A DNA stretch of 63,024 nt, filler included, from Alcyonidium flabelliforme (lineage: Eukaryota): NCBI GenBank assembly GCA_026167845.1. It is 37 parts of 37 records of this genome, joined end to end, with 100 filler letters (N's around TTAATTAATTAA, not from the genome) between each part and the next. Parts side by side here need not be neighbours in the genome. Positions count along the whole stretch, not along the records: positions 61,506 to 63,024 come from JAOQFJ010000123.1; 36 more parts are not named here. One strand, given 5' to 3'. A model generated the notes under the pieces. That model did not search any database and was not told the origin of the DNA. It worked only from the letters and a program-made list of their open reading frames with translations. Of the stretch, positions 3,731-63,024 are shown piece after piece; the first letter of the stretch is position 1; each line of letters opens with the position of its first letter. The translations under genes and the position numbers were made by a program.

Positions 3731-3812
3731 GTGTGTGATTAAAAAGATACTCATGATATAAAAATTAACTGCTAAACTAACTTGGTTAACTAATTATTAG
3801 TGAATCGAGGAA

Positions 3813-5018
3813 ATGTATATGGGTTCAATGGTTTCATTTGGTATTGGGAAACTAGAATTAGATTGGGGTAAAAATAACTCTTACAGCGATCATGGCTCTT
3901 TATTTCAGGTCAGTGATGTAAAAGATATCCCTTATTATTATTCGGATAATATTATTGAATATAAAGAAGGCTTAAGTCGAAAACTTGGATCAACAAAAAG
4001 ACGTTTAGACCTTCTTGGCTACAATCTAGATTCTCTTAAAAGGCAGTATGAAGATCATTTAAATGAAGTTCCAGAGTATTATCCTGATATACCTCTACCA
4101 TTTTACGATTTCTACTCAATTATATCTAATTTAGATATTTCTAAAATGACGCTTGATGATGAGTGGGAAGATTATGACCCTGGAGAGTTCCTTTCCAAGT
4201 ACTTATTTAAACACTCAGAATTTAATAAAATACATAATTTGTCAGAGATAGTAGATAAAGATATTGGATTGGTCTTTGAGAATATTGATCCTTATATTAC
4301 ATTACGTATTTTAGCTGAAAATCAGGCTAATAATGATCTTGATGTTTTTTGGAGTTATGCTGATATAGTCAATAACGGCTGGGTTCGTAGAGATGAAATT
4401 TTTGAAAAAGTAGGTGTAGGTCAGGAAATTTTATTTGTTACAGAAGGTTCGTCAGATACTCACATACTAAAGAAAGCCATACAGTTACTATATTCAGATA
4501 TCTCTGATTTTTTCACATTTATCGACATGGAGGATAATTATCCATTTACGGGAGATGGGAACCTCTATAACTTCTGTAAAGGGCTTATAAGTATTGGTAT
4601 TAAAAAAAATGTTTTAGTTATATTTGATAATGACGTAGCAGGTGTGGCTAAATACAATCAGCTGAGTGAAATGGATGTTCCATCTAATATGCATATTATC
4701 AAGCTACCAAATCACGCATCTTTTGAATCCTATAAGACAATAGGTCCACAAGGTGAAAGCTTCGAAAATATTAACGGTACAGCTGTAGCCATTGAATGTT
4801 TCTTAGATCATTCAGTCATTGACAGTACGGAATCTTGTATTAGATGGACTTCATATAATAAATCATTGGATGCTTATCAAGGTGAATTGATTGATAAAGA
4901 TAGATATACAAGAAAGTTCCTAAAGTTCAATCATAATAATGGTAATTATGATTACGAGAAGTTGAAATTTTTGATTGATTTTATATATAACGAGTGGATT
5001 GGGAGAGTTTCTCAATAA
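3813..5018 (+). CDS. HEPN/Toprim N-terminal domain fused to an OLD-type Toprim domain (putative defence nuclease)
   Basis: N-terminal MGSM......ELDWGKN signature; Toprim FVTEGSSD and IFDND.AG; GAGG RBS. Confidence 0.8.
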   Translation: MYMGSMVSFGIGKLELDWGKNNSYSDHGSLFQVSDVKDIPYYYSDNIIEYKEGLSRKLGSTKRRLDLLGYNLDSLKRQYEDHLNEVPEYYPDIPLPFYDFYSIISNLDISKMTLDDEWEDYDPGEFLSKYLFKHSEFNKIHNLSEIVDKDIGLVFENIDPYITLRILAENQANNDLDVFWSYADIVNNGWVRRDEIFEKVGVGQEILFVTEGSSDTHILKKAIQLLYSDISDFFTFIDMEDNYPFTGDGNLYNFCKGLISIGIKKNVLVIFDNDVAGVAKYNQLSEMDVPSNMHIIKLPNHASFESYKTIGPQGESFENINGTAVAIECFLDHSVIDSTESCIRWTSYNKSLDAYQGELIDKDRYTRKFLKFNHNNGNYDYEKLKFLIDFIYNEWIGRVSQ

Positions 5019-8943: not shown

Positions 8944-9624
8944 NNNNNNNNNNNNNNNNNNNNNNNNNNNNNNNNNNNNNNNNNNNNTTAATTAATTAAN
9001 NNNNNNNNNNNNNNNNNNNNNNNNNNNNNNNNNNNNNNNNNNNTTGTATCACATGAAGAAATGTTCGTGTCTCACCATTCCTCTTTTGAAGGACATTTTC
9101 CCATTAAACAGTCTTAAACAAGGGTCTACCTCTATGTTCACTAAATAGTTTCATCCGACTGGTAGATAGATATAATGAAACATATTCTTTCGCTCACAGT
9201 CGATAAATTACGTACCGTTTAACGTTTTCGTCCCTGCACCTCTGTGGTTTTTCTCAACGAACGGAGCAAGACACCGCTCTCGTGACGTAAGAAATGACGT
9301 CACAAGAACCAGTTCACCAAATCATCAGTTTTGAATTGAATTTTTTTGAATTGAAAAATCATTTATTCATATAAACCATAAATTACAATAGTGTATGCAT
9401 TTATAAATATAGGAGACAACCCGAAGGTTTTTTTAAAAACCGCTGAGTGGGCGCCACCTTTACAATACATAATAAAGTTTAAATATATAAAATTATTTAA
9501 TTAAAAAATTCCAGAAAAAAACCCACTTAATTCAAATAAATTAGCATGGACCAATAGTCTTAAATGTTTTTTTATGATTAGATACTTTTAATTAGACTTA
9601 TGAAGGTTAATATCGATATCGCAC

Positions 9625-10723
9625 TCATAACCTAACATTGCAAACATAACAATTATAAACATTACATACATTATTGTATTTAGACAAAATGTGTTGTTTA
9701 CAAGAGTGTACAAAACAATGAAAAGAGACAGAACTAACTTTTTCCAAAATACTTATTGACACATAATCACTATTTATGAGAATTGGAATGTAATATCGGA
9801 GACACTTCTCAGATAAATATCTATTTGAATGTTGAACATTAACTAGTCGTGTTGACAAAAGTGAATAAGGATTGATAAAGTTGTCAAAAATAGTTGGTCT
9901 ATTTATAATTCTTCTTTCATGATTTACATTGTTCAATAATATGAAATTCGAATTCAAAAAATATGATGGAATATTTTTACAGCAATGTTTGTAATACAAT
10001 TTCAGTATTGAAAGTTTGAGTAAATCATCAAATAATAAACACCTTAGTTGTTTACATAATGGTTGACGGTGTGAAAGATATGAGGAATTTGTAACATTAC
10101 GTATAGCTTTCTTTTGTAACACTCTTAATCTATCACATTGGCCAAAGCCCCAGATAGTTATACCATAAGTAAGATAGGGTAATAATAAACAGTTGTAAAT
10201 TATAGTAAGGATATTGACTGGCAGATACAATTTCAACTTAGATAGTACACCATTAATTCTGCTAATTTTATTAGCAATTTGATTGATATGCTTGTCAAAG
10301 AGAAGTCTATTGTCAAAATGTATACCCAGAAATTTCATCTCGGTAACATATTTAATTTGTGTACCATTTATTTCTAATGCAGGGACATGACACATCTCAA
10401 TATGTTTTTGTAGAAAATGGAATAACATAAATTTTGTTTTTGAGACATTAAGTGAAAGTTTGTTAACAACCAACCAGTCGTATAAACTTTGTAGTTTTAT
10501 ATTGATGCCAACACTTATTGCATCATTTATTGTTTGAGTATTGGTATTAACATCAATCGGAGTTAGAAGACATGTGTCATCTGCATACATCAAAAATTTA
10601 CAGTTGGTACAAACAGGTAGATCATTTACATATATAAGAAATAGTAATGGACCCAAAATTGATCCTTGAGGTACGCGAGTTGTTATTTCAAGAGATGATG
10701 AAGTTGTGTTTTCCAGAGAAACA
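9625..10723 (-). mobile_element. CR1/L2-group LINE ORF2, RT domain and C-terminus, 5' partial
   Basis: VPQGSILGPLLFLIYVNDL, YADDT, KLSLNVSKTK, FLGIHFD, YGITIWG, terminal CNVYNCYVC. Confidence 0.93.
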
Positions 10724-15798: not shown

Positions 15799-16129
15799 GG
15801 TAGTATATAGTAGTGGTTTTTATCTTGCACTGTGCACTTTTAGCCTTTTATCTGTCATTTATTTATGGCTGTTTTGTAAATACACGTTTGTTTCATCCAC
15901 CGGGTGTAGTCACACTCGACCTACTGTGATAGGTTCAATAGAACCTCTAGTAGTAAACTACTTGAAGACTCTGATTAATAGTCAATAATACATTAATAGT
16001 AATTTACACTTACACTTAATACAGGTTNNNNNNNNNNNNNNNNNNNNNNNNNNNNNNNNNNNNNNNNNNNNTTAATTAATTAANNNNNNNNNNNNNNNNN
16101 NNNNNNNNNNNNNNNNNNNNNNNNNNNGA

Positions 16130-16626
16130 AACGGGCGGAACCAAACAATACAGATGAACAAACTCGCTTTTTCAAATTACCTTACCTAGGTACTTTTTCT
16201 AAGCGTACTCGTATTAAGCTAGAAAAACTGGTCAAACGTTATTGTGGTAATTTGAATATTCGTATTGTATTTCAGTCATTTAAAATTGGTTCCATGTTTA
16301 GTTTGAAAGATCCTATGTCTCTGAAATCTCGTGTTATTTATCAGTTCAAATGTAGAAGTTGTGATTCGACTTACTTGGGTGAAACATCCCGTCATTTAAA
16401 CACGAGAATTGCTGAACATCTTGGCAGAGATAAGAACTCTCATGTTTTCAAACATTTACAGGAATCTGCGGCATGCAGAGCTACTTGTGATCCTACATGC
16501 TTTACAGTTTTGGATACTGCAGACAATGTTTATAATTTGAGGCTTAAGGAATCGATGTACATATTATGGAATAGGCCGAATTTGAATGGACAGATAAAAC
16601 ATGCCTTTTTAAATATTTGTGTTTAA
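16130..16626 (+). mobile_element. Penelope-like element 3' end, GIY-YIG endonuclease
   Basis: VIYQFKCRSCDSTYLGETSRHLNTRIAEH ... LKESMYI...PNLN. Confidence 0.92.
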
Positions 16627-16754
16627 ATGTCAGTTTGAGCGACATCTGTTGGTAGTTTTAGGTTTTACTTTATTATCTCCCCTGTTAATATTGTAGCCAA
16701 TAAGCGCTTTCGTTGATTGTATATATAGCTTTGTGTTGGCCAGTTTGGCGCATT

Positions 16755-16790
16755 TTTGAAAATGAAGTTAGAGACTTCGAAACTAGTCAA
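16755..16790 (+). ncRNA. Minimal variant hammerhead ribozyme motif
   Basis: TTGAAAAT, stem GAAGT/ACTTC, GAAA, palindromic CTAG, TC; downstream of a PLE ORF. Confidence 0.55.
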
Positions 16791-17230
16791 GTTTGAATAA
16801 AACCAACTACGATGATACGTTTTAAAAGTATCGTGTTTTTTATCATTGCAATTTGAAAAAGAAAATAAATTAGTTTCGCTAGCAACTTGAATATTGTGCC
16901 CTCAATAAGAAGTACACGTATATCGACGTTTAGCAAAATGACTCTGACATTGAATTTTCAAATCATCATTCAGTTGCAGAGTAAAAGCCTATTTGACAAT
17001 AGGTGAAACGTAGCAAAGTAAGAACTAATTCCAGTATTTGATTCAATTTATCTCCATTCTAATGCAAACTGGATGACTCAAAACATTCATTCTATACTCT
17101 ATAAACATCCAATTACCAGTGTAGGTATTAGCACCAACGCAAGACAACAGCAAATGCATCGTGGTTAATAAAATCAAATCAACAACATAATATTAGGATG
17201 CATTGAATATAGAAAACAACGCTTTTAAAA

Positions 17231-17272
17231 GTCGACATGTTTCAACGTGTATTCTTCACATTATTCTCAAGA
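17231..17272 (-). ncRNA. Minimal variant hammerhead ribozyme motif
   Basis: Minus strand CTTGAGAAT, stem AATGTG/CACGTT, GAAA, palindromic CATG, TC. Confidence 0.55.
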
Positions 17273-17379
17273 CAAATGGCGATGTAAACAAAGCAACCTC
17301 ACTATATATAGCGTGGGTTGGTATAAATACAGGAAGGTAACAGAAACGTGGAATAACAGGACAAGTAATTAATTGAAAT

Positions 17380-17615
17380 CTAAACATACAGCGTAATCAA
17401 TTCATGTGTAAGCTGAGCATTTAATACAGGGTGTTCTTTAGAAATAATTAACCCTTCCTTCAACCTTAATTTAAATTGATTACTATCAGAATCCAATATA
17501 GAAAAACACGATTCATTAGACAATCTCTTGCAGTTGGGATTATTGTCCAAATGTATGAAAACGTGCGATGATTTGTTACTTCTCAAATGTTCCTTAATCC
17601 GGGTTGTCAAATGAT
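17380..17615 (-). mobile_element. Second, 5'-truncated Penelope-like GIY-YIG end, convergent with the first
   Basis: TRIKEHL...SHVF.HL...C.....CFSILD......LKE.L.I...P.LN. Confidence 0.85.
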
Positions 17616-17629
17616 GAATGTAATCATGA

Positions 17630-17776
17630 AATCTGCATCATAGTCAAAAAATTCAAAAAAATCGGTAAAGGGGTAAATTTGAGATCTTTGTATCCAAAAA
17701 ACCTTGTCGGATGACAAGGTTTTCGAAATTTTCACTTAGTTAGGATAAAAAGCTCCAATTTACCCCTTTACCGATT
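17630..17776. mobile_element. Palindromic MITE, partial; family shared with the copies near 47900 and 59900
   Basis: AATCGGTAAAGGGGTAAATT / AATTTACCCCTTTACCGATT arms. Confidence 0.75.
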
Positions 17777-28224: not shown

Positions 28225-28335
28225 CGAACAAGATACTTTTATTTGAAGACTTATTCAATATTGCCTGTCTTAAAATATATTTTCAGTATAAAAATAAGAA
28301 ACTTCCTAATTATTTTCAGGAAAACAATTTCAGAG
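28225..28335 (+). pseudogene. CR1/L2-like LINE ORF2 C-terminal fragment
   Basis: NKILLFEDLFNIACLKIYFQYKNKKLPNYF parallels LLFDDLLKLSILKLYYKHCCKNIPSYF in the LINE at 9625. Confidence 0.65.
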
Positions 28336-28695
28336 AAGGTAAACAGTGCATAAATGTACTGGTTAAGTTGTTACCAGGGCCTGATATCACCGTTATGTAA
28401 GTGAGCACCCTGAAGTAATACTCATGGGTAGCAACTTGTTTGTGGAAATAGTATGAAACAAATCACTTAGCTGTTATGTTGAAGATTCTGTATGGGCTGT
28501 GTTGGGGTCTTGGTTGTACTGTCTAGGTCGAACTTGTAGCTTCTTTTGCATCAGTAACAGGGATGTTGGTTGTTCTTCTTAGGTTGTCGTCTGTTGTCAA
28601 TCAGTTTTGGTCTATCAGTCTTCTCTTCCATTGTTGATAGTTGCATCTAGATACAGGTCAGTTCGTAGTCAGATTTTGGTGACTTCATCGTTGGC

Positions 28696-29300
28696 TTAGT
28701 GTCTAGGGAAGTTGGTGGTTCTTTGTAGATCAACAACGGTGACGTTGGTGCTTGCGTCAACTAGAGTGTGTTTTACTGGTTCAAACACATCTAACTTTGA
28801 TTTGTGTGGGTGGAAGCCAGTTTGATGACAGCTTGCAATGTAATGAAGCCCATGGTCTGGTGTAAGGTGGTAGTAACCAGTTTCTTGAAATTTTGCCGAA
28901 TGGACTATGGCAATGGCTTCTGGCATCATCAGTTGGTATGGGCAATGTGTGTGGAGATCAACACTTGAGAGGAATGCAGTTTGGGAAGGATGAGTGTGAA
29001 TCCAGCCCAGCGTTATAAGTTCTCTGTCGAGTTGGTATGCGAGAATGTCTTCTTCTCTCTCTGCTGCACACGAATTAGCTGTTCCATGTTGTTCAGGGAT
29101 TAGCAGATGTGTATTTGAAGATCTCTGTGTGTTGCCTTCCCAGACAATATACCACATGTTTCTATGTTGTGCTTGGTGTTGTGGAGGGCCACTTCTAAAA
29201 ACTGCTTGATCAGGTCGTATGGTATCAGCACGTTTCGCAGATGTCTGGAGTCCGTAAGATGTACTTCGTCTTCGCAGATGGTGGCATTGATGTCTTCCAT
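28696..29300 (-). pseudogene. Intronless AMSH/STAMBP-like JAMM (MPN+) deubiquitinase domain with one frameshift near 29111
   Basis: LRNVLIP..L..QFLEVA..NT..NIETCGILSGK then HLLIPEQ.GT..SC, LGWIHTHPSQTAFLSSVDLHTHCPYQLMMPEAIAIV, C...GFHPH. Confidence 0.92.
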
Positions 29301-29440
29301 GTGGTTATCTTATGTTGTGGTGATTGGGCTGGGAGTTGGTTGGGTTGATGTGGTTGGTTTCTCAGGAATGTCACAATTACTGCTCGTATTTTCAGGAGCA
29401 GTGGTAGATCTCTGTGTGTTCAGTCTACATCTCATTGGGG

Positions 29441-29695
29441 TCTCTGGACTTCGGATGAAACTGTGGTTTGTTTCAGGAGGAACGCACTCATTGTCAGTTA
29501 CTTCTGGAACAATGGTGGATCTCTGTTTTTTGCAAGCCCCTTGAGTTTTCTATTGAGATCGTGGTGGTTCACAGGAGGACCAAAGTCAGTGCTAGTAGCT
29601 TCTAGAACAACGGTAGGTCTCTTAGTCCTAGCATTCCTTTAGTTCTTTAATGTCTTTGTATCTTGGACATTGTGATGGGAGGCTGTGTCTTGGTG
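29441..29695 (-). repeat. Segment homologous to the retrotransposon tail at 62764-63024
   Basis: Colinear alignment by eye, including identical TGACTTTGGTCCTCCTGTGAACCA and CACCAAGACACAG.CTCCCATCACAATGTCC. Confidence 0.93.
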
Positions 29696-31622
29696 ATGAT
29701 AAAGCTTATGGTAATAAAGTATACAAAATGCCACCAGGGGGACAACTGAAAGAGGGAAAATGACGGAAATCAGAAACAGTTGCCATATTCATGCCAGGAA
29801 CAAGGATACAAAATTTTTTCAAANNNNNNNNNNNNNNNNNNNNNNNNNNNNNNNNNNNNNNNNNNNNTTAATTAATTAANNNNNNNNNNNNNNNNNNNNN
29901 NNNNNNNNNNNNNNNNNNNNNNNCTTTTATTACACTTTGTTACATAATAGACTTACTCAAAACCACAGTTGTTATAAATCCTCTTAATGTGGCCAGAACC
30001 TTTAACATATTGTGACTTGCAAAAAATATTGATATTTTCTTTTTTGTGAATTCTGCTTGGCCATATTCTTTGGAATAAATTTACAAAATAAATTCTCACT
30101 TTTCTCGTCGATTTGTAATGAAAAAACACCTTTTTCTGAAGACCGGTGAAAAATCCGACTTTGCTAGAAATCACGTGACATATTCGCCCCTCCTACCATA
30201 TACGTCATTTGACCTAGATCAACATCACAACTCCTGGGAAAATGGCTACTCGAAAGAAGCGTGGTGTAAAGCCCAGTAGAAAGTCGCCGAAAGTTCCCTG
30301 TCCGCGACTTCTAAAGCAATTTTAAAGCTCTCGAACAAAGGTTCCTTTTACAATCAACCGGAGAGTTGGTTTGCGATGCGAAACAAGGGTTAGAATACCG
30401 GGACGCTCTCGGGTCCTGGGTCAGTGTGATCCCGAGTACCATCGGCATCGTTTAGTTTGGTTAAGTTACTTCACTCATCCATATTCCCTGCATTCCTTCA
30501 CCAGCTTCTCTGTTGCCTTTTTCAATGTTTCTTTTCTACTTGTAGGCATCGTGATCATCAATTATTTTACGTAATAAGTTGCAACAAATAAATCTTCACT
30601 CGGAAGCGTATTATAAACATGTGTTGACCTATATATCCATAATATGGAAAGCCCCGCCCACATAATCAATATTCCAGGTCACATGATTAAAGTTTTCGCA
30701 CAATTACCTACCCATTGGATTATTTAGCTATTTTTTACCAATCATGGGCCGAAATGTCGTAGGCACGTGTCGAAACATATTTTATATGCTATTCAGCTTC
30801 CAGACGAATGGTTTCCCGCTGTTTTGGAGTGAAAATTGCTCCACGAGGACTGTTTGAAGTTTATAGGATTGAAATCTCGATTTTCTAGGCTTTTGAATTT
30901 GTGATATCTGCTGTGATTTGAATTTATTTAACTCATTATCACAGTAGGTTATGAATAGTTTTAGAAGCTATATCGCAAGAAGACACATTGATCCTCAATA
31001 ATGTGTCTCGGATTTTTGAAAGGGCGTCTAGTTTTATTTTCAGGGACATGTCCTGAATAAAATTGCAGACGCCCAAATTTCAAACAAGTGGCCCGCCTTT
31101 GAAACAAAGTTGCAAATTAACAGAGCTATGTATCAAAATTTTGAGACACCTTTTTGTGCTAGACACATGGCATTTTCGGATGCAATTTGAATTACGCAAT
31201 TTCCTCAAAAGGTGTAAAAGTTAAATTCTTATAAAGTTAAACCTGTAGTTTTTGCGGTAAATGGCAGCAATTTCGTTACCATGGCAACAAATTGGACCAC
31301 AATGTAGTCGGATTGAAAGAAAAAAAACTGACTAAAAAGAAAATGTATACATTATAATACTTTTAGTCTCTAGTTTTAAAGATACATTGTAACAAAGATA
31401 ACTAAGAAATAAACGGTTCTCGCCCCCTTAAGGATTAAAATGAATTCCAGTAGAAGAGCAATTCTTTCATTTGTTATCCATCTTGTTTAAGAAAATATTT
31501 CTAAACATGCAACACTAATANNNNNNNNNNNNNNNNNNNNNNNNNNNNNNNNNNNNNNNNNNNNTTAATTAATTAANNNNNNNNNNNNNNNNNNNNNNNN
31601 NNNNNNNNNNNNNNNNNNNNAA

Positions 31623-38285: not shown

Positions 38286-39368
38286 NNNNNNNNNNNNNNN
38301 NNNNNNNNNNNNNNNNNNNNNNNNNNNNNTTAATTAATTAANNNNNNNNNNNNNNNNNNNNNNNNNNNNNNNNNNNNNNNNNNNNGCAGTTTGAGACGTT
38401 TCTTTTTTGTCAGACGTAAGCGGGTGACGTAGTAGGTTAAGTTTGCAAGGTGCCAATGGCTTGGAAGTATTGTGAGATACAAGAGAGTAAAATAACAAAG
38501 TAATTTATTGTAGAAAATAATATAGGTATAAAGTATGCAATCTCAGGTGGTGACCTCTATGGGTGAGAACTCTCCAATGTTTGGAGGTAGATATCAAGTA
38601 ACTTAAACCTAAAATACGAATTACAAAATACAGGTCTTATCTGATATCAATCCCACAATCCTTTGAGCTCAGTCCCACAATCCTTCTTTCACACCAAATG
38701 TCCCACGATCCTCTATTCACAATGTCGTTCTCTCTCTGTGATAGCCGGTGCTATACACAGTCGCGATATATCACAGACTCTTAGTTTGATTCTTTCAAAC
38801 CTCTGTGGTATATGTTATTGACAGTAACGCGCTAAGTCCCAGACTTGTAGTTGACTGCCCTCTATTGGTAAGTACACGTATCTTCTTTCCTTCGAAGTAG
38901 TGTCTTGTCCTTCTGATACGACTTGTAGAATGTTCCAGAATCCTTTCTGCTGAGACAATGTGTTATGGAGATGTTATACACTTGAGCCCACTCTTCTGAC
39001 TGACTTCTACCTCATGGAAGCACTAATATATACATAATATCATGTCTTTAAGTCTCACCCATTGGTGCATTGTGTCACATGGCATAATAAATATTCATAT
39101 GACTCATTATAATATCAATAGGTGATGTCATATGCCTTGAAATTCTAGACTTTTCCAATCTCATGTTTGTTTACAGTTTCATCTCATTTCTATTTTTAGT
39201 AACAGTGTGGCTATTTATAACTCAAATTTCATATGGGTATTACAAGCCAACTAATGAACTTTAATCATCAAAGATCTTCACAATTACTTAATCATTTTCT
39301 GTAATTCTTGTTTCAAGTTGTTCTTGAATACACCCTAGGCTTGGGTATCAAATATCAAAACATAACAT

Positions 39369-39965
39369 TCAATATTTAGCCTGACAATTTGTTAGCAATC
39401 TAACCAGCAAATGATCGCTGACATCATAATTCTCTTTGTATAAAATATATTTCAGACTATCAACTATTCCATTACTTGGACCATAATCCAACTTAATCCT
39501 AATGGCATTAAAACCTATAGCAATGGGAGAGTAGCCCCGTGTAACAATGTTATTTAACAAGCTATTCTTTATTAAGACACCCGTAGTAATATAATGTGAC
39601 AACATGTTGACCTGCAATCTTTGTAGTGGAGAATCAACCCTAAAAATTCTATTATAAAATAACAACACATTCCTTTCAACAACATGGTCTACCCTCGGTA
39701 TATCTAAAGCCCTCAATAAATTGGTGTGATGACTTCTTTTATGAAGTCCAAAAACATGTTTCAAAATTGATGTCTGAGCCGAAACTAATCTGTTGATGTC
39801 GCCAGTATTCAGTGCAACACACTCAGTACCGTATAAGAGAGTTGGTGCACCAACAGATTTTCATAAATAGGCTTTAACCTCACTATTCAGACCTGGGTAG
39901 GACATGCCACACGATGAATAGCTATATACATCTTTCCTACAAGCATCAATACGTCTCTCCACATG
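39369..39965 (-). pseudogene. Degenerate LINE ORF2 3' end
   Basis: PTLLYGTEC, GLHKRSHHTNLLRAL; in-frame stop. Confidence 0.75.
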
Positions 39966-40226
39966 NNNNNNNNNNNNNNNNNNNNNNNNNNNNNNNNNNN
40001 NNNNNNNNNTTAATTAATTAANNNNNNNNNNNNNNNNNNNNNNNNNNNNNNNNNNNNNNNNNNNNTTGGCTACAGTTCTTCTTCTTCCATTATAGTGCAT
40101 ACCTCTTAGTAGAGTAATTCGCACTTGAGTGTGTATGTGCACATGTGCAAAAAAATGTCGGTGCACAAAAAAACAAATTCAAATTCCAAAACCATATGTG
40201 CAATATATACAATTATCCATCGATCT

Positions 40227-40722
40227 TCAGACTAGTTGGATGTGTTGAAGGCTCGACTTGAAACCTTCCAGCGAATCTGCTGAGGTAGTAGCACTGGGGA
40301 TGGTGTTCCATATGCGGACTGAGCTTGGAAAGAAGGAGTATTTGTAAATGTCTAAACGGCAGTAAGGGATAATGAAGCAACCCTGGTATCGACCACGTGT
40401 AGATTGTGTTGGTTGTATATGCTGATGTGCAAGAATATCAATAAGATAGTTTTGGATCTTATACATCATAGTAGCCTTTGCTTTAGCACGTCTTTCTTGT
40501 AGAGACTCCCATCCAAGTTGATGGATCATAGATGATGGACTGGCTTCTCTGCTGTAATCATTGCAAACAAAGCGTGCACCTCGCCTCTGACACATTTCTA
40601 ATCTGTTGATGTTGTCCTTTGTGTGAGGGTCCCATACTACTGAAGCGTATTCCACAATAGGTCTGACTAGAGTTGTATAGCATCTATCTTTAACTGTACG
40701 TGGGCAACTGATGATGTTTCTA
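40227..40722 (-). mobile_element. 5'-truncated LINE ORF2 end (CR1/Jockey-like)
   Basis: YTTLVRPIVEYASVVWDPH, QRRGARFV, LGWESLQERR, YKYSFFPSSVRIWN. Confidence 0.88.
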
Positions 40723-43413
40723 TCCTGGGGCTAAACGTCCGGACATCGAAAAATCTCGCGAGAACATCGTTCTGCCGGACGTTTTACTTACTTACTTGTC
40801 CGGTCAAATAAAACTTCACTTACGTCCCAGGACTTTAATGGTTAACTGAAAATGTTCAATCCATATACAATAGATTGCCCTTTTTTGAGCCTTGGCGGCA
40901 ACCGCATTTTGACAAGTAAAAACTGAGATACAAAGTATCGTTAAGTCTTTCCGAGGCTGCTTAGAGGGAAATGTGAAAGATATAATCATGTGGTAATATG
41001 TTTATACTAAATGTTAGTTTTAAGACAACTAAAGATGCTTAAAATAATTTACAATAAAATGAATTTATTATTTTACTCACCAAAAGTACAAAAAGCTTTG
41101 AAAACTGCGAAATTGCTTATAAAATCTATAGAGTCTGACATCTTTATTATCAACATTCTTGGAAATGACTCAAAGTTCAAGGCTGTTCTAAATATAATTA
41201 ACCAATCAAATTGCTGGAAATGTACAAGACAGTTTGAATAATGGAGGGAAATTAAGCTGTGAGTTCCAAAACTGGATGAATTTTCAAGAAAATGTAAGTA
41301 ATTTAATCAAAACTTTATTAAGTAAATATGTTTTTGTGTTCTACAGGAATCAGAGAAAATGCAAAACTACTCTTACAAAAATATAGGTTCCTACAAATTT
41401 AGTTAGAACTACTACATGTCTATTAATAAAAAGGCATTGATTTCTTCAAATGTGAGATATGTTAACTATGCTTTAATATGTTTTTACTTAGATTTAACTT
41501 GAATGCTGTAAAACAAAATTATAATTAAAGCATTATAATAAGCAAGTCATTTAATATTTGGTATTTTATATCTATAATGTTCTATTATTATCTATTTTAG
41601 TTATATTAATCTCAGATACAAGTGAATTATTATTTAATACCTANNNNNNNNNNNNNNNNNNNNNNNNNNNNNNNNNNNNNNNNNNNNTTAATTAATTAAN
41701 NNNNNNNNNNNNNNNNNNNNNNNNNNNNNNNNNNNNNNNNNNNGGATTTTTATTATGCAGTATTATAGGCGGCTGCGCTTGTGGTTTTTGATTAGAACCT
41801 GTGATGTACTTAATTAATGTTATGCCCGCAAAACAACGTCTTTAATGTTTCGAGTGCCATAAAAGAGGAGTGTCAGTTGGGATACTGTTTCCTTGTTGGT
41901 AGCACAGAACGATATTTCATTTTTTTGCAGTGGTAAATTAAGATTCAAAAGTTTACAATATCAGGCAATCACTTCTAAATATTCCCCTTGGTGTTGTTTC
42001 AAAGTAAAATAGTACAGATGGTCAATCGTGTTCCTCACTGTACTTTCTCGGCACAATACAACACTTTCTCAGTTGATTATTAACAAAACGCAGATTATGC
42101 AATATGTATGTGCATGCATGAAAAGCAGTTAATTGCGGCTATGTATATGCAATTTATAACACTTTACGAAATGTTATGGATTGCCAGATATTAAATTTCT
42201 CAGTGAAACATTAGTTCTGTCTATTCTGTTACCTACTGTACAAGATATACTTACTATCTTGTCTGCGTTTTTCTAAATAATCAGCGATAAGAGCATGTTA
42301 AACATGTTATAACATTTAAATTATCATACTTTTAAGATGATACATAATTTTGACACATAAATCAACTCGACTACTTATACATGCAGATGTCATATATTAA
42401 TTTGATGAATATTGCAATGGATGATGTATAACGTTAGGCGTGCAAAGAGCTTGGGCGTCGGACGACTTGAGTAGATGTTAAAGAAACATCTCAAATTATA
42501 TGAAGCCCCGTTGTTTGGACTCTTTTGACTTATGATATGTGAAGGGAAGATATTTGCCCACAATATATTGAAAAATAAAAAAATGCGTATTTCCAGTATT
42601 TTTTAAAAAGCGCAAAATGTACGTTTTTTGTAATAACGAAATAGCAGGTTGTATTGACTGTAAAAAAAATAGCGGAAAACAACATGTATTGAAGGATGTT
42701 TTTATAACATTTGAAAGGCATGACATGAATCTTTATTTTACCGTGTAGACATTTAATTTTAGAATAACGGCTAATCATACAGAATTTTTGCGATATTGTG
42801 TTTGGCCGAGGTATAAATTCTACTACCGATTAAGTTTGGAATGGAGTTGGGAGTAAAAAATGATATCTAAATTAGGCTCAGGTGAAGGAGAAAAACATAT
42901 CAAAAAATAAGAAAATGTATACCTCTAGATTTTTTTTAAATGCGAAAAAAGTGATTTTCACGGAAAGAACACAATTTTGAACTCGCCGTTAAAAATACGT
43001 CAGGGCGTTACTCGAAAAAAAAATGACGCCACGAATTAGCCAAATATTTTGACCTTTAAACAAATTTGTTTTTTTTCAAATACTTAAAGCCACGTTAAAA
43101 CGATGATCATTTTTCAAACACACCCTTAAACGTAGATAACGCAATTCGTAAAAATGCAACATTATTACCAGCCTTTCTCGCGGAAACCCACTTATACGCA
43201 ATTATTATCAAGCATATCATATATATACTGTCATTATTGTTTACTGACATCAGATACTTAAATCATATTATTTATGTAAATTATGAATTACAGGTTTCAT
43301 TTTCACATTTTTANNNNNNNNNNNNNNNNNNNNNNNNNNNNNNNNNNNNNNNNNNNNTTAATTAATTAANNNNNNNNNNNNNNNNNNNNNNNNNNNNNNN
43401 NNNNNNNNNNNNN

Positions 43414-45470: not shown

Positions 45471-47341
45471 ATATTTAGCTAAATATTGGCAAATAGGGTG
45501 TTGTTTTCAGCCCGAGTTACAGACGTGTAAAAAGGGCCGGTGTTTTTCACCATCAGATGTGTAAAAAGTGTATATTTTTCAGCCATCAGATGAAAATCAG
45601 CCCGGCATAAACTTAGAGACTGGGCAGAAATTACCCCAGGGGGGAGCAAGGAAAAACCAAAAATTGTCCCACGTAACATCATTTACCCTTCAGCTTCTGG
45701 GGCCCTCGCAGGGCCAGGCTTGGAAAAATTAATAGCTGTGCGTACACAACCCATTATAACATATACAATCAACTTTATTGCACATCTCCCATCATCTGTG
45801 CAGGATATGCTAGCTTCATACATTCTACATGATGTTACTTAATTATGAAACCGGTCCGAATTTATTTTTGGCAGTCAGGGCCAGGTAATAATGAGAGGTA
45901 ACATTTTTTATTTTTGGATGCATATAGGGGATGCATTTTTATTTTGGCCTTCGTCATGAACTGAATTCTCCCGAACATTTATTAATCTAAAGAGTATACG
46001 TAGAAAAAATTAGACTTCAAATATTATTATTAACTATCAATTGGAATGTTTGTATCCTATTGCAATAAATGAATATGAACATTTTAATCTAGGTACATGT
46101 ATATAAGGTGTTTTCTTTAATTTCTAACAATTTTAGTTAACATTTTCTCTTTCAAACCAGATCTATAAATTGCGTTCTAAATTTCATAATTTTCCCACGG
46201 GGGAGTACCCCCGGACCTCTCTTCAATACATACCACCAGGCATTTAATAAATAATAGGTTTTTTAAATAACATACTACCATGCCATTCTTTATCAGACAA
46301 CAGAAAAGAACACTGCAATGTGATGACTATATATATATATAAGTACTTTATATAATATTTATGTACATCCCCTGGATACAGTTAGGCAGTATGAATAATG
46401 TTAAGATGATAAAAAAATGACAGTCATTCCACAAAGCCCCAAGAATACTTGTTGCAGTAATTTAAATTAAACAGAATTTGGGTTACATATTCCATCTAAT
46501 TAACGAGTGTGCTTAAGTCTGAAAAAACAATTGTGTAGGCATTTTTTTGGAAGTTTTAAATTTAGGTTATAGAGTAGTTTTGCACTGGGTAGTGATCAGG
46601 TCCTTTAATTCTTGGTGGAGTGATCCGGGCTAGTGCTTTTGNNNNNNNNNNNNNNNNNNNNNNNNNNNNNNNNNNNNNNNNNNNNTTAATTAATTAANNN
46701 NNNNNNNNNNNNNNNNNNNNNNNNNNNNNNNNNNNNNNNNNAATTTCACCAAATTTTACATCAAGGATTAAACTATGATACTGGAAAGTCTTAAGATAAA
46801 CACCCTGTCACCACGCTAGATATGAGACTCCAAAATGTAATAAAAACTGTTAAACTTGAAATATGCAATGACTGCTGTAATGCATCGTATAAGAAATGCA
46901 GATTTGATTTTTTTTACAATCTGATTTTTGTCTTTTAAACAAGTGAAAGGGTTCCTTTCCAAGATACACTAGTCAAAAAAAGTATGGAATATTTTTTTCA
47001 TCGGGGTCGCGTTTTTACATTTCACGAAGGATAGTAAAAGCATTTGATGGCTGTGAAAATATTGTCTATTATGAACAAAATAAAAGCAATTTGATGAATT
47101 TCTGAAAAAAAATCTTGAAAATATGACGTTTCAAAAATGAGAGATGAAGAAAAAAAAATGACATTCAAGTTGTTTTCATAAAAGTTTGGAATTTTTCATT
47201 ATAATTTTCATTTTTGCAAACAAAAAGCTTTAATATGTCATTATTTGGAAAGAAAATTATTAAAGTAAAACGATGATCGTATTTTGGAGTAATTTCATTG
47301 AAAATTAATTGAATTCGATGACATTTTAATAAGAGCAGTCT

Positions 47342-47686
47342 GTGGTTTGTAAATTAGCATCTTTAATTTGTCATGCAAAATCACGCCTACCTTTACTTAG
47401 TAAGAACAATGTTGTTTATCAAATCAATTGTGACAATTGTGACGCTTATTACATCGGTTTGACTCAAAAGAGATTAGCAGATAGATTTCAAGAACACCAC
47501 ACCTCTGACAAAAGCAATGTATTTAGGCACTGTCATGAAAAGAATCACACTGCTTCTCAAATTAAGGTTTTAACAACTGAACACAGCAGGGAGAAATTGT
47601 ATATCAAAGAAAGTCTTTTTATTCAAAGTACTAAACCATTGTCTTTGAACAAAGACGTCACCTCTGTGCAACTGAATCTGTGGTAA
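47342..47686 (+). mobile_element. Third Penelope-like GIY-YIG 3' end
   Basis: VVYQINCDNCDAYYIGLTQKRLADRFQEH ... IKESLFI...P.SLN. Confidence 0.9.
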
Positions 47687-47781
47687 CCATGGTGCTCTCT
47701 CTAGCTATGTTATAAATTGTACTTGAATTCACTCTACCACTGACTGTTCTACAAGCAAGTCATGTTTTTAACTGTTCTGTA

Positions 47782-47820
47782 ATTGATAATGCTTTAAAGA
47801 AATAAAGCGAAACGTCTTGA
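47782..47820 (+). ncRNA. Minimal variant hammerhead ribozyme motif
   Basis: TTGATAAT, stem GCTTTA/TAAAGC, GAAA, CGTC. Confidence 0.55.
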
Positions 47821-47896
47821 TTTTAAATATGAAGTTGTTCATATGCGCTCTGATAATCAGATTTTTAATTCTGCTCTGGCCAAAGACAGATTTAAT

Positions 47897-48146
47897 TAGA
47901 AATGTTGTGTATGAGTCCTTTGATGAACATAACTAACTTGCATCTGAGTCAAATAATTCTAAAAAATCTGTAAGGGGTGATTTGAGAGCTTTTTATCCTA
48001 AAAAAGTCTAACCTAGTCTTAAGAGAGGGTTAGATTTGGATACAAAAAGCTCCCAAAAGCCCCTTTACAGATTGTTTTGAATTTTTTTACTAAGATGCAA
48101 GTTATAGTTATGTTCATTAAAGGACTCTTACACAAAATTTCTAGTT
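47897..48146. mobile_element. Palindromic MITE, complete copy
   Basis: GAGTCCTTTGATGAACATAACT / AGTTATGTTCATTAAAGGACTC arms and inner inverted repeats. Confidence 0.85.
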
Positions 48147-48426
48147 GATTTCAATTTTGACGCCAGATTGGGACCAACGAGGAGACAGTATCTTTAAACG
48201 TCGGGCTCTGAAGACCACCAACAATCATAAAATTGCTCAGTACTTAATTGCTTGGAGAATGCATAATCGTCACAATTGCTAAATCTTGAACATTGGGTTT
48301 TATNNNNNNNNNNNNNNNNNNNNNNNNNNNNNNNNNNNNNNNNNNNNTTAATTAATTAANNNNNNNNNNNNNNNNNNNNNNNNNNNNNNNNNNNNNNNNN
48401 NNNACTTTATATCATGAGTTTGCAAG

Positions 48427-49956
48427 CTACAATCTCGGTGTTATAGGCGAAATTGTTTTAATTGTCGTTGATGAATTAACCAATAGTAAAATACTAATAA
48501 GAGATTTAGAAAAAAATATATAGATAAACGAAACCGCTACCATACTAGCTGTATTCCAAGAAGACACATATTTGTCCCAAAACTGTGACAGATCTATCTC
48601 TGGACAGAGAGATGGATCAGGTGCCTTGTTAACCCAAGCCAAGCCATGAATGTGCAAACTACCTCCATGCTGCCATTCAACCCTATACCAATAGTCAGTA
48701 ATGTCTAGATAAGATGTCAAAAATTGCTCGAAAATCACTTTGAATCTCAATGTCAGATAAAAATCAACTGTCAATAGAGAATGTGCTATGGCCTGTGCTA
48801 CAGACCTATTTTCAGTTTCTAAGAATTTTAATAGATCTGGTCATTGATGGTCGGCTACAGAAAATGTGAAGAACACATTTGCTGCACCTAGCTTCTCAAC
48901 CATGGCTATTAGATTGCATTGTTGTGAGTACCAATATTGTGGGGTACCTCTGACTTGAGAACCAAACCAAAGAATTATATTTGCCATGTCGGTTACATTT
49001 GCATTCTGTTGCGCTGGATCATTTCTAACAAATACCCTACCTACTTTACCTACCTACCTTCCTATGTACTACCTACCTACTGTTTTATGTTAGAAAAAGA
49101 AAGCTAGGATTGGCTTGGAATCTTCCATCGTGATCTGACAACATGGGGGAGAAGTATTTAAGAGGAGTTACCCTTGTTTGTCGTGGAGCTCGTAGGTCAG
49201 CAGCACCTGTTGGAAATAGACATGAAATGCCCTTGCTATATAACCTACTGTGTTAAATTAATTGATGGGGTCATCTAATGTTTCATCAAGTATAGCTGCC
49301 TGTATTGCAGCATGTACGTCAGGCCCACGCAATTGCTGTGGCACAAATGTATTTGGCAAAGGAAGTGGGTGGAAGTTATTTTCAGCGTTGCCATTGTTTT
49401 CAAAATTTTCACCGTCTTCATTGTTAGGTACTGCTCCTTGATTGTTTAAGACATTGGCAGGTTGTGGTGGAATGATGTCATCGATGGCATTGACATCGGG
49501 AAGCTGTACAATACCGTTAACAGGCAGAGTATCTACATCTTGTTGAATTATTTCTATATAATTGTAATATTGGTTATTCTGTTTTAATCATGCTAAACCG
49601 GTAAGTACACGCTGTCGACCAACAGTGAAGAAATTTGGTGGCAAATCAGGTCTACCACCTACACCTCTGCGCAATACTAAAATGTCTAGTTGGTCAATAC
49701 GGCGAGGTAGTTGAGTTATGAATGTATTTACATCTTGCGGTACATTTAAAACATGGCCATTAAAACCGAATTGACCCCCACGAGGCAGTCTAAACATTGA
49801 CATCACATTGATGGTGTAACCTGAGCTATCAATAACTGTTCAACAGCTGTTAAACCTGAAAGTTCAGGTACCATAGGACTTGGGTCCATATTTTTGGCAG
49901 CAGAATATTTAACTTGTTGCCATGGTTTGTTGGTGCAGCGCTTACATAATTGAACG
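48427..49956 (-). pseudogene. Decayed Helitron RepHel, Rep/HUH region
   Basis: GQFGFNGHVLNVPQD, VRGTPQYW, FFTFSVADHQ, YRVEWQHGGSLHIHGLAW; several stops and frameshifts. Confidence 0.88.
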
Positions 49957-61505: not shown

Positions 61506-63024
61506 ATGGAATTGAGTCAAAGAATTGGAAGAAAGAGAACGCCATCTCCTCATCAACTAGATGTGCAGAGGACAACATGACAGAGCTGAAATTGGGTTTC
61601 ATCGACATCAAAAACTCACCAAAGCTATGACCCCATCTGAGCACAGAAAATGTATCTCCAGCCTCATCAAAGAAGTTGATGAAGAGGACATGATAATTTT
61701 CCTCCACTCCTGTGCCAAACAAGGACAATTCCTTAAATGGGACACTGCCATGCAAGTAGATACATCTTGGAACAAACTACTATACGTCTGGTCGCCAGAA
61801 CTACTATCATTTCACATCAATGCCATCCACGATCTGCTACCATCACCAGCAAATCTAAAACTGTGGGGAAAAACAGATACTGGCACATGCAAACTATGCC
61901 ACCACACCAATTGCACACTGTTTCACATCTTAAATGGTTGCAACTACTCACTCCATGATGGCCGATATAACTGGCGACATGATCATACCCTGAAGATGAT
62001 TGCAAATGGTTTACTTCCATTCATCACTGATGCTAACAGTCAATCCAACCATGACTGCAACAACAGACACCACACTGTTAAAGCACCCCAATTCAAGACT
62101 GCTAGTGGAAGATCCTACCACAACCCTGATCTTCCCTTTGCTGAAGATTTTGCCACCAACATCCTAAGCAGAACCAATGACTGGGTCCTAATAATGGATG
62201 AAGAATTTAACCAGATGGCATTTCCTCCTCAAATTTGTGAAACATCAAAGCGACCTGACATAACCATCTTCTCTCAGAAGACGCAAACAGTAATAATAAT
62301 TGAACTTACTGTACCAATTGAGGAAAACCTGGCAAATGCCTATGCTAGAAAGAAATGCAAATATGACCAACTAGTAGCGGACTGCGAAAACAGAGGATGG
62401 AAAACATTTTACTTTCCCGTCGAGGTTGGCAGCAGAGGCTTCTACAACACCTCTCTAACGAAATGCCTTGCAGCCCTTGGAATACCAAGAGGTCGCCGAA
62501 AACCAATCCTAGACGATGCCTCCAGAACAGCCCTTCGAGCCAGCTACTTCATCTGGCTGAACAGAAGAAACCAACACATGCAGCGGTGTGATCTTACACA
62601 CACAGAAATGAGGGAAGAGAGACGGTTGAGCGCTCATGAAACCGGTTTAACCCACCAAAGTCTGGTCCGAAGTCCAGAGACCTCATCACAAAGACCTACT
62701 GCAGCTCCAAATACTGCAAAGGACTGTGTTCAACAGGAAGAGCTTACCAATCCAAGCAAAAAGCACCAAGACACAGTCTCCCATCACAATGTCCGAAATA
62801 CAAAGACATCAGGGAACCCCAGGAATTCCAGAGCAAAGAAACCAACCATTGTTCTAGAAGCAACTAACAATGACTTTGGTCCTCCTGTGAACCATCACTC
62901 TCTCGACGAAAGTCCAGGGACCTCAGAGAAATCAAATGGCTTGCAAAAACAGAGATCTGCTATTGTTCCAGAAATGACTGACAATGACTGCTAAGACAAA
63001 CCAGTTTTATCCGTAGTCCAGAGA
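61506..63024 (+). mobile_element. HERO-clade non-LTR retrotransposon ORF: zinc knuckle, restriction-like endonuclease and an unusual Ser/Thr/Pro-rich tail; 5' partial
   Basis: CKLC...TLFHILNGC, GRYNWRHD, RPDI, IELTVPIEEN, KKCKY, PVEVGSRGF, ASYFIWLNR. Confidence 0.92.

Follow-up and report, generated by a model that had tools for sequence, protein, structure and literature searches.

The last contig of the window raises the question of what follows the nuclease in a retrotransposon ORF that does not stop there. The window is the whole 63,024-nt stretch analysed here from the Alcyonidium flabelliforme assembly, 37 contigs of 1.5-1.7 kb each joined by spacers, among which bacterial, phage, fungal and animal-type DNA are mixed. 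Contig A (61506-63024) is the last of these and carries an RLE ORF. Contig B (28225-29823, minus strand), taken as the homologous copy in a first, sequence-only reading, stands apart from it as a contig of its own. Since A and B are 75% identical over 272 alignment columns, gaps counted, they cannot be joined into one locus and are two different copies. Their features, described in part by reference to an intact relative (P0002) and a second subfamily (L001), are as follows.

61506..62556, plus strand: C-terminal half of a retrotransposon ORF (end of thumb/linker, CCHC finger, RLE nuclease), equal to P0002 aa 651-1000 by tblastn
61513..61515, plus strand: nonsense codon specific to A, where P0002 has Gly653
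61558..61560, plus strand: nonsense codon specific to A, where P0002 has Glu668
61888..61941, plus strand: CCHC zinc knuckle (CxxC...H...C), placed by motif positions and conserved in 10/10 rows of alignment A1
61975..62439, plus strand: RLE core, with RHD at 61975, RPD at 62251, the E in IIELT at 62296, KxxKY at 62347, GW at 62395 and PVEVGSRG at 62416
62557..62991, plus strand: first two thirds of a Thr/Ser/Pro-rich linker with degenerate ~38-aa repeats
62610..62639, plus strand: relic, in another frame, of where the ancestral ORF ended (tblastn over 260 nt, E 2e-5)
62987..63002, plus strand: 8-nt and 2-nt deletions that make the premature TAA at 62992-62994
29244..29695, minus strand: contig B, linker of a second, 5'-truncated, decayed copy
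28696..29243, minus strand: contig B, AMSH/STAMBP-type JAMM domain and stop codon, with catalytic Glu at 29162, His at 28998 and 28992, and Asp at 28959
28333..28695, minus strand: contig B, 3' UTR, its last ~120 nt conserved with L001; the element ends at 28333

The frame of A is open from 61561 to 62991. The motif ASYFIWLNR ends at 62565, and the 142 open codons that follow agree with the ~140 aa that the sequence-only reading had reported; the four degenerate repeats it had named (RSPET, QRPTAAP, KPTIVLE and QRSAIVPE) are found at 62668, 62689, 62839 and 62950. When the last 138 codons were shuffled, 0 of 2000 shuffles stayed open. That reading had also stated that HERO ORFs usually end a few residues past this W motif. 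The ORFs of relatives do end soon after it, but at 16-42 aa rather than a few: from 80 loci fetched, 59 had an RLE hit and 46 of these were closed by a stop, at a median of 19 aa past the motif. The closest tail-less relatives end 30-35 aa past it, and in 126 of 138 proteins from a wider search the median distance from the RLE profile to the ORF end is 18.5 aa.

The TAA at 62992 had been seen to coincide with a small deletion relative to B. There is a deletion at that place, but it is two, of 8 nt and 2 nt, and not one. Both are absent from sibling contigs in other runs, and the stop is, as proposed, a lesion of this copy. The missing pieces (8 nt behind 62987 and 2 nt behind 63001) are both present in contigs of X4 and X5 (2/4 runs); contigs of run X2 show the 2 nt, and run X1 lists neither piece. 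The two nonsense codons upstream, which the sequence-only reading overlooked, also break the ORF, and contig A is dead three times over. In contig B, the JAMM is frameshifted by a 1-nt deletion near 29111, with its catalytic residues still there.

Twenty-three proteins came up when longer relatives were sought. First among them is P0002, a protein of 1407 aa that is 99% identical over the query and consists of an RT, a CCHC finger, an RLE nuclease, a repeat linker and a JAMM of the AMSH/STAMBP type; Pfam places RVT_1 at 244-508 (E 7e-21) and JAB at 1227-1334. Contig A matches residues 651-1145 at 486/495 aa identical (tblastn), and contig B matches 1118-1269 at 128/153 and 1270-1407 at 134/138. 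The prediction had been that a JAMM should begin about 200 nt beyond the end of the contig, and it begins 197 nt beyond it as measured by B or 198 nt by P0002. P0002 is an intact relative, at 98% identity, that reads through into the JAMM (MPN) domain, and it supplies the RT that extension in the 5' direction was expected to recover. A 175-nt contig of X4 bridges the last 62 nt of A and B 29338-29512, and a 988-nt contig of X1 runs from the linker of B through the JAMM into the 3' UTR.

The same layout is found in three more subfamilies, represented by P0004, P0003 and L001, which are independent of one another and come from two sources. P0002, P0003 and P0004 are single records on contigs of 4.5-5 kb, of which P0002 may be a collapsed consensus of young copies and P0003 has its JAMM cut short in that record; L001 is a contig in circular permutation, which was read through its terminal repeat. 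The four are 79-85% identical in the RT and 72-83% in the RLE region, then 64-78% in the JAMM and 24-37% in the linker. A JAMM search among proteins of 773-2463 aa gave 45 hits, with an RT only in P0002 and P0004, and a JAMM is present in 1 of 80 JGI loci. No USP or NADAR hit was found in those 80 loci, and L057 (66%) is decayed, with no JAMM seen. Contig A derives from a non-LTR retrotransposon of the RLE type (HERO-like), of which it is a dead copy; the element's single protein has an AMSH/STAMBP-type JAMM at its end, and we take the order RT, CCHC, RLE, ~220-aa repeat linker and JAMM to be virtually certain. Loose ends in X1, X4, X5 and X6 match a P0004-like beside a P0002-like subfamily; since loose ends of both occur in the same runs, both JAMM subfamilies likely share one host. 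Among 15 runs listed for the element none is of RNA, which carries no weight as to its expression.

By all features tested, the element is an RLE (R2-group) non-LTR retrotransposon. Contig A itself lacks an RT, and Pfam zf-RVT in its ORF is weak (E 0.008, under cut-off). P0002 has a non-LTR-type RT with YADD at 421, whose best PDB matches are R2 proteins (E 2e-27). Past the RT come the CCHC knuckle and then an RLE with RH, PD..E, KxxKY and GW, the motif list and its meaning being taken from PMC5678591. The hallmarks of TPRT are present: B is 5'-truncated at 29695 and has a fixed 3' end at 28333, loose ends at 28332/28333 occur in 4/4 runs, and A-runs lie beside the end in X1 and X4. There are multiple copies (1195 + 2473 variant contigs in run X2). 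No target-site duplication was seen at B. The 3' flanks differ between runs and contigs, with an agreement of 0.4 over 38 X2 contigs at few sites, and the HERO clade mostly lacks a specific target site (PMC4640811). Both flanks of B (28225-28332 and 29696-29823) are themselves repeated in run X2, and an uninterrupted form of its 3' flank is seen in three runs.

A single N-terminal CCHC-type finger is a feature of HERO. One is present in the L001 ORF, P0115, P0012 and P0014, and none in P0008 and P0009; the P0002 record starts downstream of this region. In an RT tree of 40 rows, without a labelled HERO reference or outgroup, the JAMM lineage lies beside, not inside, a fish/amphioxus/Aplysia group (100/100), which it joins weakly (77/85). 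The named relatives come from sea urchin, sea cucumber, amphioxus, Aplysia and fish. From the layout and from the host range of these relatives, membership in HERO is likely. The element shares with that clade the single ORF, N-terminal zinc finger, RT, CCHC knuckle, C-terminal RLE and varied flanks, and HERO families in Repbase are from sea urchin, leech, amphioxus, pufferfish and zebrafish (PMC7650587, PMC5678591). It is unlike HERO in having ~400 extra residues past the RLE, ending in a JAMM. The prokaryote genomes gave two weak RT hits at 23-28%, and the viral contigs no match by pattern or protein.

Several minor observations concern the ends of these elements. The 5' UTRs carry short tandem repeats of ~17-21 nt (L001 885-1040 and other loci), possibly an internal promoter; one 13-nt 5'-UTR pattern occurs in 15/80 loci, and Rfam on L001 700-1250 gave one chance-level match only. 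Terminal repeats mark circular assemblies in 7/80 loci (L001, L012, L018, L023, L033, L042 and L054). In L001 the 5' end follows directly on the 3' end, no tail lying between them, which hints at copies arranged head to tail or at an effect of assembly.

The JAMM belongs to the STAMBP class (E 4e-55; the next JAMM class is at E 3e-8) and is 48-49% identical to AMSH. The L001 domain, folded with a 43-row alignment, gave a model of pLDDT 94 that superimposes on AMSH and AMSH-LP at TM 0.92 and rmsd 0.8-1.1 A; the ESM Atlas gave generic AMSH-like clusters only, below 0.9. P0002, P0004 and L001 all keep the catalytic site E...HxH...S..D (Glu1253, His1308, His1310, Ser1318, Asp1321), the second zinc site (His1323, Cys1364, His1370, His1372), Thr1314, Phe1316, Phe1369, and both insertions (Ins-1, Ins-2). 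Ins-1, Ins-2 and the second zinc site align ungapped to AMSH-LP 314-339 and 393-415. The roles of JAMM residues other than W345, Y367, E326 and V328 are those we presume. These four are named in PMC8449267, and our residue numbering reproduces them. According to that source, Ins-1 and Ins-2 give K63 specificity, STAMBP is K63-specific, its isolated catalytic domain is active, and K63 chains are mainly signalling marks (PMC8449267). The JAMM of the element is probably an active cutter of K63 ubiquitin chains, as predicted by homology. The distal-ubiquitin Phe332 of AMSH-LP is replaced in the elements by Leu, Leu or Val, and the L001 JAMM has drifted to 64-66%, so the specificity may have changed.

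The element shares with the AMSH/STAMBP proteins (STAMBP, STAMBPL1, Sst2) the fold, both zinc sites, Ins-1/Ins-2 and the proximal-ubiquitin Thr/Phe. It differs in being fused to an RT-RLE protein and in lacking the other parts of those proteins: there is no Pfam hit to USP8_dimer/MIT in the element proteins, and the SH3-binding motif occurs in 0/4 of them versus 3/3 host proteins checked. It therefore carries the catalytic domain of AMSH only. The element JAMMs form one clade (100/98) in a 22-row tree and group weakly (84/90) with beetle and Trichinella AMSH, six of the 22 rows being animal. AMSH-type JAMMs were also seen on proteins that resemble those of DNA transposons, N-terminal on a DUF4371 (hAT-like) protein (P0039) and C-terminal after a Ulp1 domain in a 1967-aa DUF6729 protein (P0063); these do not group with the retrotransposon JAMMs, and so look like separate captures.

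The JAMM is under purifying selection. A comparison of B with L001 over 175 codons gives a dN/dS of 0.19 at dS 1.5, and a pN/pS of 0.35 with a bootstrap range of 0.27-0.45; the decay of B would raise the JAMM dN/dS, not lower it. The RLE region, compared between A and L001 over 332 codons, has a dN/dS of 0.09, and the JAMM value is twice that.

The linker holds a record of how the fusion may have come about. The tail-less sisters (P0005, P0068, P0070, P0224) end in nine residues that recur out of frame in A at 62610-62636, 8/9 identical, with a stop directly after them; L001 has the relic without the stop. The relic starts a 69-nt segment that is 93% identical between A and L001. Over 24 codons at the relic, dS is 0.12 versus 1.1 in the RLE, which suggests a constraint on the RNA. 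Since the former ORF end is still there in another frame, read-through after a frameshift is the likely origin of the fusion. We propose that an element without a tail acquired, at its 3' end, the portion of an AMSH gene that encodes the catalytic domain, the gene being eukaryotic and probably animal; 3' transduction or a template switch may have brought this about. A frameshift just before the old stop would then have opened the old 3' end and fused the new sequence to the ORF; its direction is suggested by P0006, which shares the register of the sisters, the node between P0006 and the sisters being unsupported in the finger/RLE and RT trees. The old 3' end would have been kept as the conserved segment, and local duplications would have lengthened the linker, whose units are ~38 aa in P0002 and P0004 and of a different, longer kind in L001. 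Behind the JAMM there is a new 3' end, the ~120 nt conserved between B and L001. A preserved out-of-frame old C-terminus is a rare snapshot of a transposon protein gaining a domain.

What occupies the slot after the nuclease in relatives was asked of a library-wide search with the window ORF, which, at E 0.001, yielded 5442 clusters. We read the top 150, of which 138 were scorable, a sample ranked by likeness to the query and not a census. In this sample, 34/138 clusters have tails of >100 aa; the other 104 have no long tail, and some of these 'tail-less' rows may be broken copies like A. The 34 long tails comprise 21 with Pfam UCH (USP), 1 with a Cys-box motif only, 2 with DarT, 1 with NADAR and 9 with no hit. 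Further USP-bearing relatives came from searches outside the best-150 set. Among 29 USP-labelled proteins, 22 reach the His box, and the Cys and His boxes are kept in 22/22. A DarT-family ADP-ribosyltransferase follows the nuclease in P0320 (E 3e-24) and P0360 (E 4e-25), which do not group together in trees. A C-terminal NADAR is seen in the RLE proteins P0013, P0096 and P0362, in a cluster of 33 members, and NADAR has been reported on Gypsy and Tx1 elements (PMC12477816).

In a 44-row finger and RLE tree, the four JAMM elements are one clade (100/96). Three tail-less sisters join it (100/98), within a 20-row clade (97/97), and USP bearers branch on both sides; the 40-row RT tree agrees. These positions suggest a single gain of the JAMM, by a tail-less lineage whose kin include USP bearers. 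As for a single origin of the USP, the RLE tree does not unite its bearers in one clade (AU p 0.0003), while the near-clade USP domains as one group are neither shown nor rejected (p 0.41). Both an ancient gain with losses and repeated gain fit, and either may be the history of the USP. The presence of unrelated DUBs in the same slot suggests that the elements must erase host ubiquitin marks to spread. A wider idea, which we hold tentatively and at somewhat under even odds, is of a swappable counter-defence slot, repeatedly filled by unrelated erasers or writers of marks (JAMM, USP, NADAR, DarT), that would reveal a ubiquitin/ADP-ribose restriction of TPRT in marine eukaryotes; in the JAMM lineage a cysteine-protease DUB would have been lost and its function restored by a metalloprotease from the host.

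Our reading of the whole, to which we give a probability of roughly 60%, is that of an RLE element with an AMSH-type JAMM, predicted to be an active K63 cutter and likely to protect the element against host control based on ubiquitin. The tethered JAMM would remove K63 chains in cis. Its substrate would most likely be the RNP of the element itself, or proteins that sit at the nick while target-primed reverse transcription proceeds; innate-immune signalling, which would be dampened, is the other candidate class. Homology points to the K63 activity, the fusion, together with a long flexible tether beside the nuclease, points to action in cis, and the repeated recruitment of unrelated DUBs points to a benefit for the element; a single argument, the tether, favours RNP or nick-site proteins over signalling adaptors. 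There are precedents, in that transposon-borne VTD domains have been argued to protect transposition proteins (PMC9741609), and L1 ORF2p is ubiquitinated and degraded through TRIM41 (PMC11868049, a review). In that L1 case the restriction works by degradation, and cutting specific to K63 chains would not obviously stop it. Since the closest sisters (the P0005 cluster and P0006) and 104/138 clusters have no long tail, RLE retrotransposition in general can do without the JAMM. The two window copies, A and B, are both dead.

The JAMM could instead act in trans, suppressing immunity or signalling through K63 chains on nucleic-acid sensors and adaptors, and not at the RNP or insertion site. K63 chains being mainly signalling marks, and STAMBP being K63-specific and active as an isolated catalytic domain, would suit this (PMC8449267), as would the use that viruses make of DUBs (PMC9741609). 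Against it, the JAMM is fused to a scarce protein bound to its own RNA, which favours local action. Non-LTR elements show cis preference, and the DarT and NADAR found in the same slot act on nucleic acid by family annotation, which points to the DNA site. We consider action in trans unlikely. Another thought is that the domain persists for its binding of ubiquitin, by which the RNP would be targeted or anchored, with catalysis incidental. AMSH-type JAMMs bind two ubiquitins via Ins-1 and Ins-2, both of which are present, but all catalytic residues are kept in 3/3 complete subfamilies at dS above 1, and the alternative cargo USP also retains its Cys and His boxes, which makes pure binding improbable.

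The domain might also be a neutral passenger, a 3'-transduced host gene fragment without function. TPRT always copies 3' cargo first and such cargo hitch-hikes easily, and the P0003 JAMM is broken; the selection data (dN/dS 0.19, pN/pS 0.35 with range 0.27-0.45) nevertheless contradict this account, and the in-frame fusion has been kept in three subfamilies while the linker changed freely, so that it is very improbable and largely refuted. That the whole could be an assembly chimera of a retrotransposon and a host STAMBP gene is raised by the single records of P0002, P0003 and P0004 on contigs of 4.5-5 kb and by the circular permutation of L001. Yet the junction is common to four divergent subfamilies, bridging contigs exist in two runs, and the element JAMMs are a clade of their own (100/98) without introns, MIT or SH3-binding motif; a chimera can almost be set aside. 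Least probable, to the point of being negligible, is a relic of a Prp8 ancestor. Prp8 has RT, RLE-like and Jab1/MPN parts in the same order, its large fragment is resembled by RLE LINEs (PMC5678591), and its C-terminal Jab1/MPN appears in the fold search. The fit to AMSH (TM 0.92, 48-49% identity) is set against TM 0.61-0.67 and 15-20% to Prp8 Jab1, Prp8 is absent among 28 sequence hits, and the fusion is limited to one shallow clade with the old ORF end visible. In Prp8 an RNase H-like domain lies in between, and its MPN is inactive and distant. Judged from the model and the sequences, the likeness in domain order is convergent.

DUB domains are already known on DNA transposons and on nematode NeSL elements. 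NeSL and Utopia-1_TSP are likewise RLE non-LTR elements with a captured ubiquitin-like-protein isopeptidase, Ulp1-like (PMC4640811). They differ in that Ulp1 is an N-terminal cysteine protease for SUMO on nematode site-specific elements (PMC4640811), whereas the element here has a C-terminal metalloprotease of the ubiquitin type. DNA transposons described with DUB cargo include Ginger1 (OTU/Ulp1), Mutator (Ulp1), Helitrons (OTU/VTD) and a Trichomonas transposase with peptidase C19 (PMC2836005, PMC9741609). Like the RLE elements, these show swappable DUB classes on a transposon protein, often C-terminal; unlike them, the cases given in those sources are cysteine proteases only, with no JAMM and no RLE retrotransposon among them (PMC2836005, PMC9741609). 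In the full-text literature, we found no report of a JAMM or USP at the C-terminus of an RLE element; Repbase Reports lay outside that search and may hold an earlier note. Nor did the papers found describe a JAMM metalloprotease on any retrotransposon, or a USP-bearing RLE lineage of this breadth. An enzyme of the K63 type directs attention to autophagy, DNA-damage or immune signalling, and not to plain escape from the proteasome. Gene-insertion tools are now being made from RLE elements; the element is compact (5 kb), and a natural accessory that may make insertion more efficient has practical interest.

Other contigs of the window hold unrelated features. Window 9044-10723, 16128-17776, 38386-41643 and 46742-49956 carry what we take to be animal-type mobile-element fragments, presumably APE-type LINE RT ends, GIY-YIG Penelope-like ends and a Helitron-like piece. 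At 3804-5018, there is a 404-aa ORF that we assume to resemble a HEPN/Toprim-associated protein. Finally, at 1834-2660 on a presumably bacterial contig, two adjacent small ORFs resemble what we take to be a RES-domain toxin and an Xre-type antitoxin.
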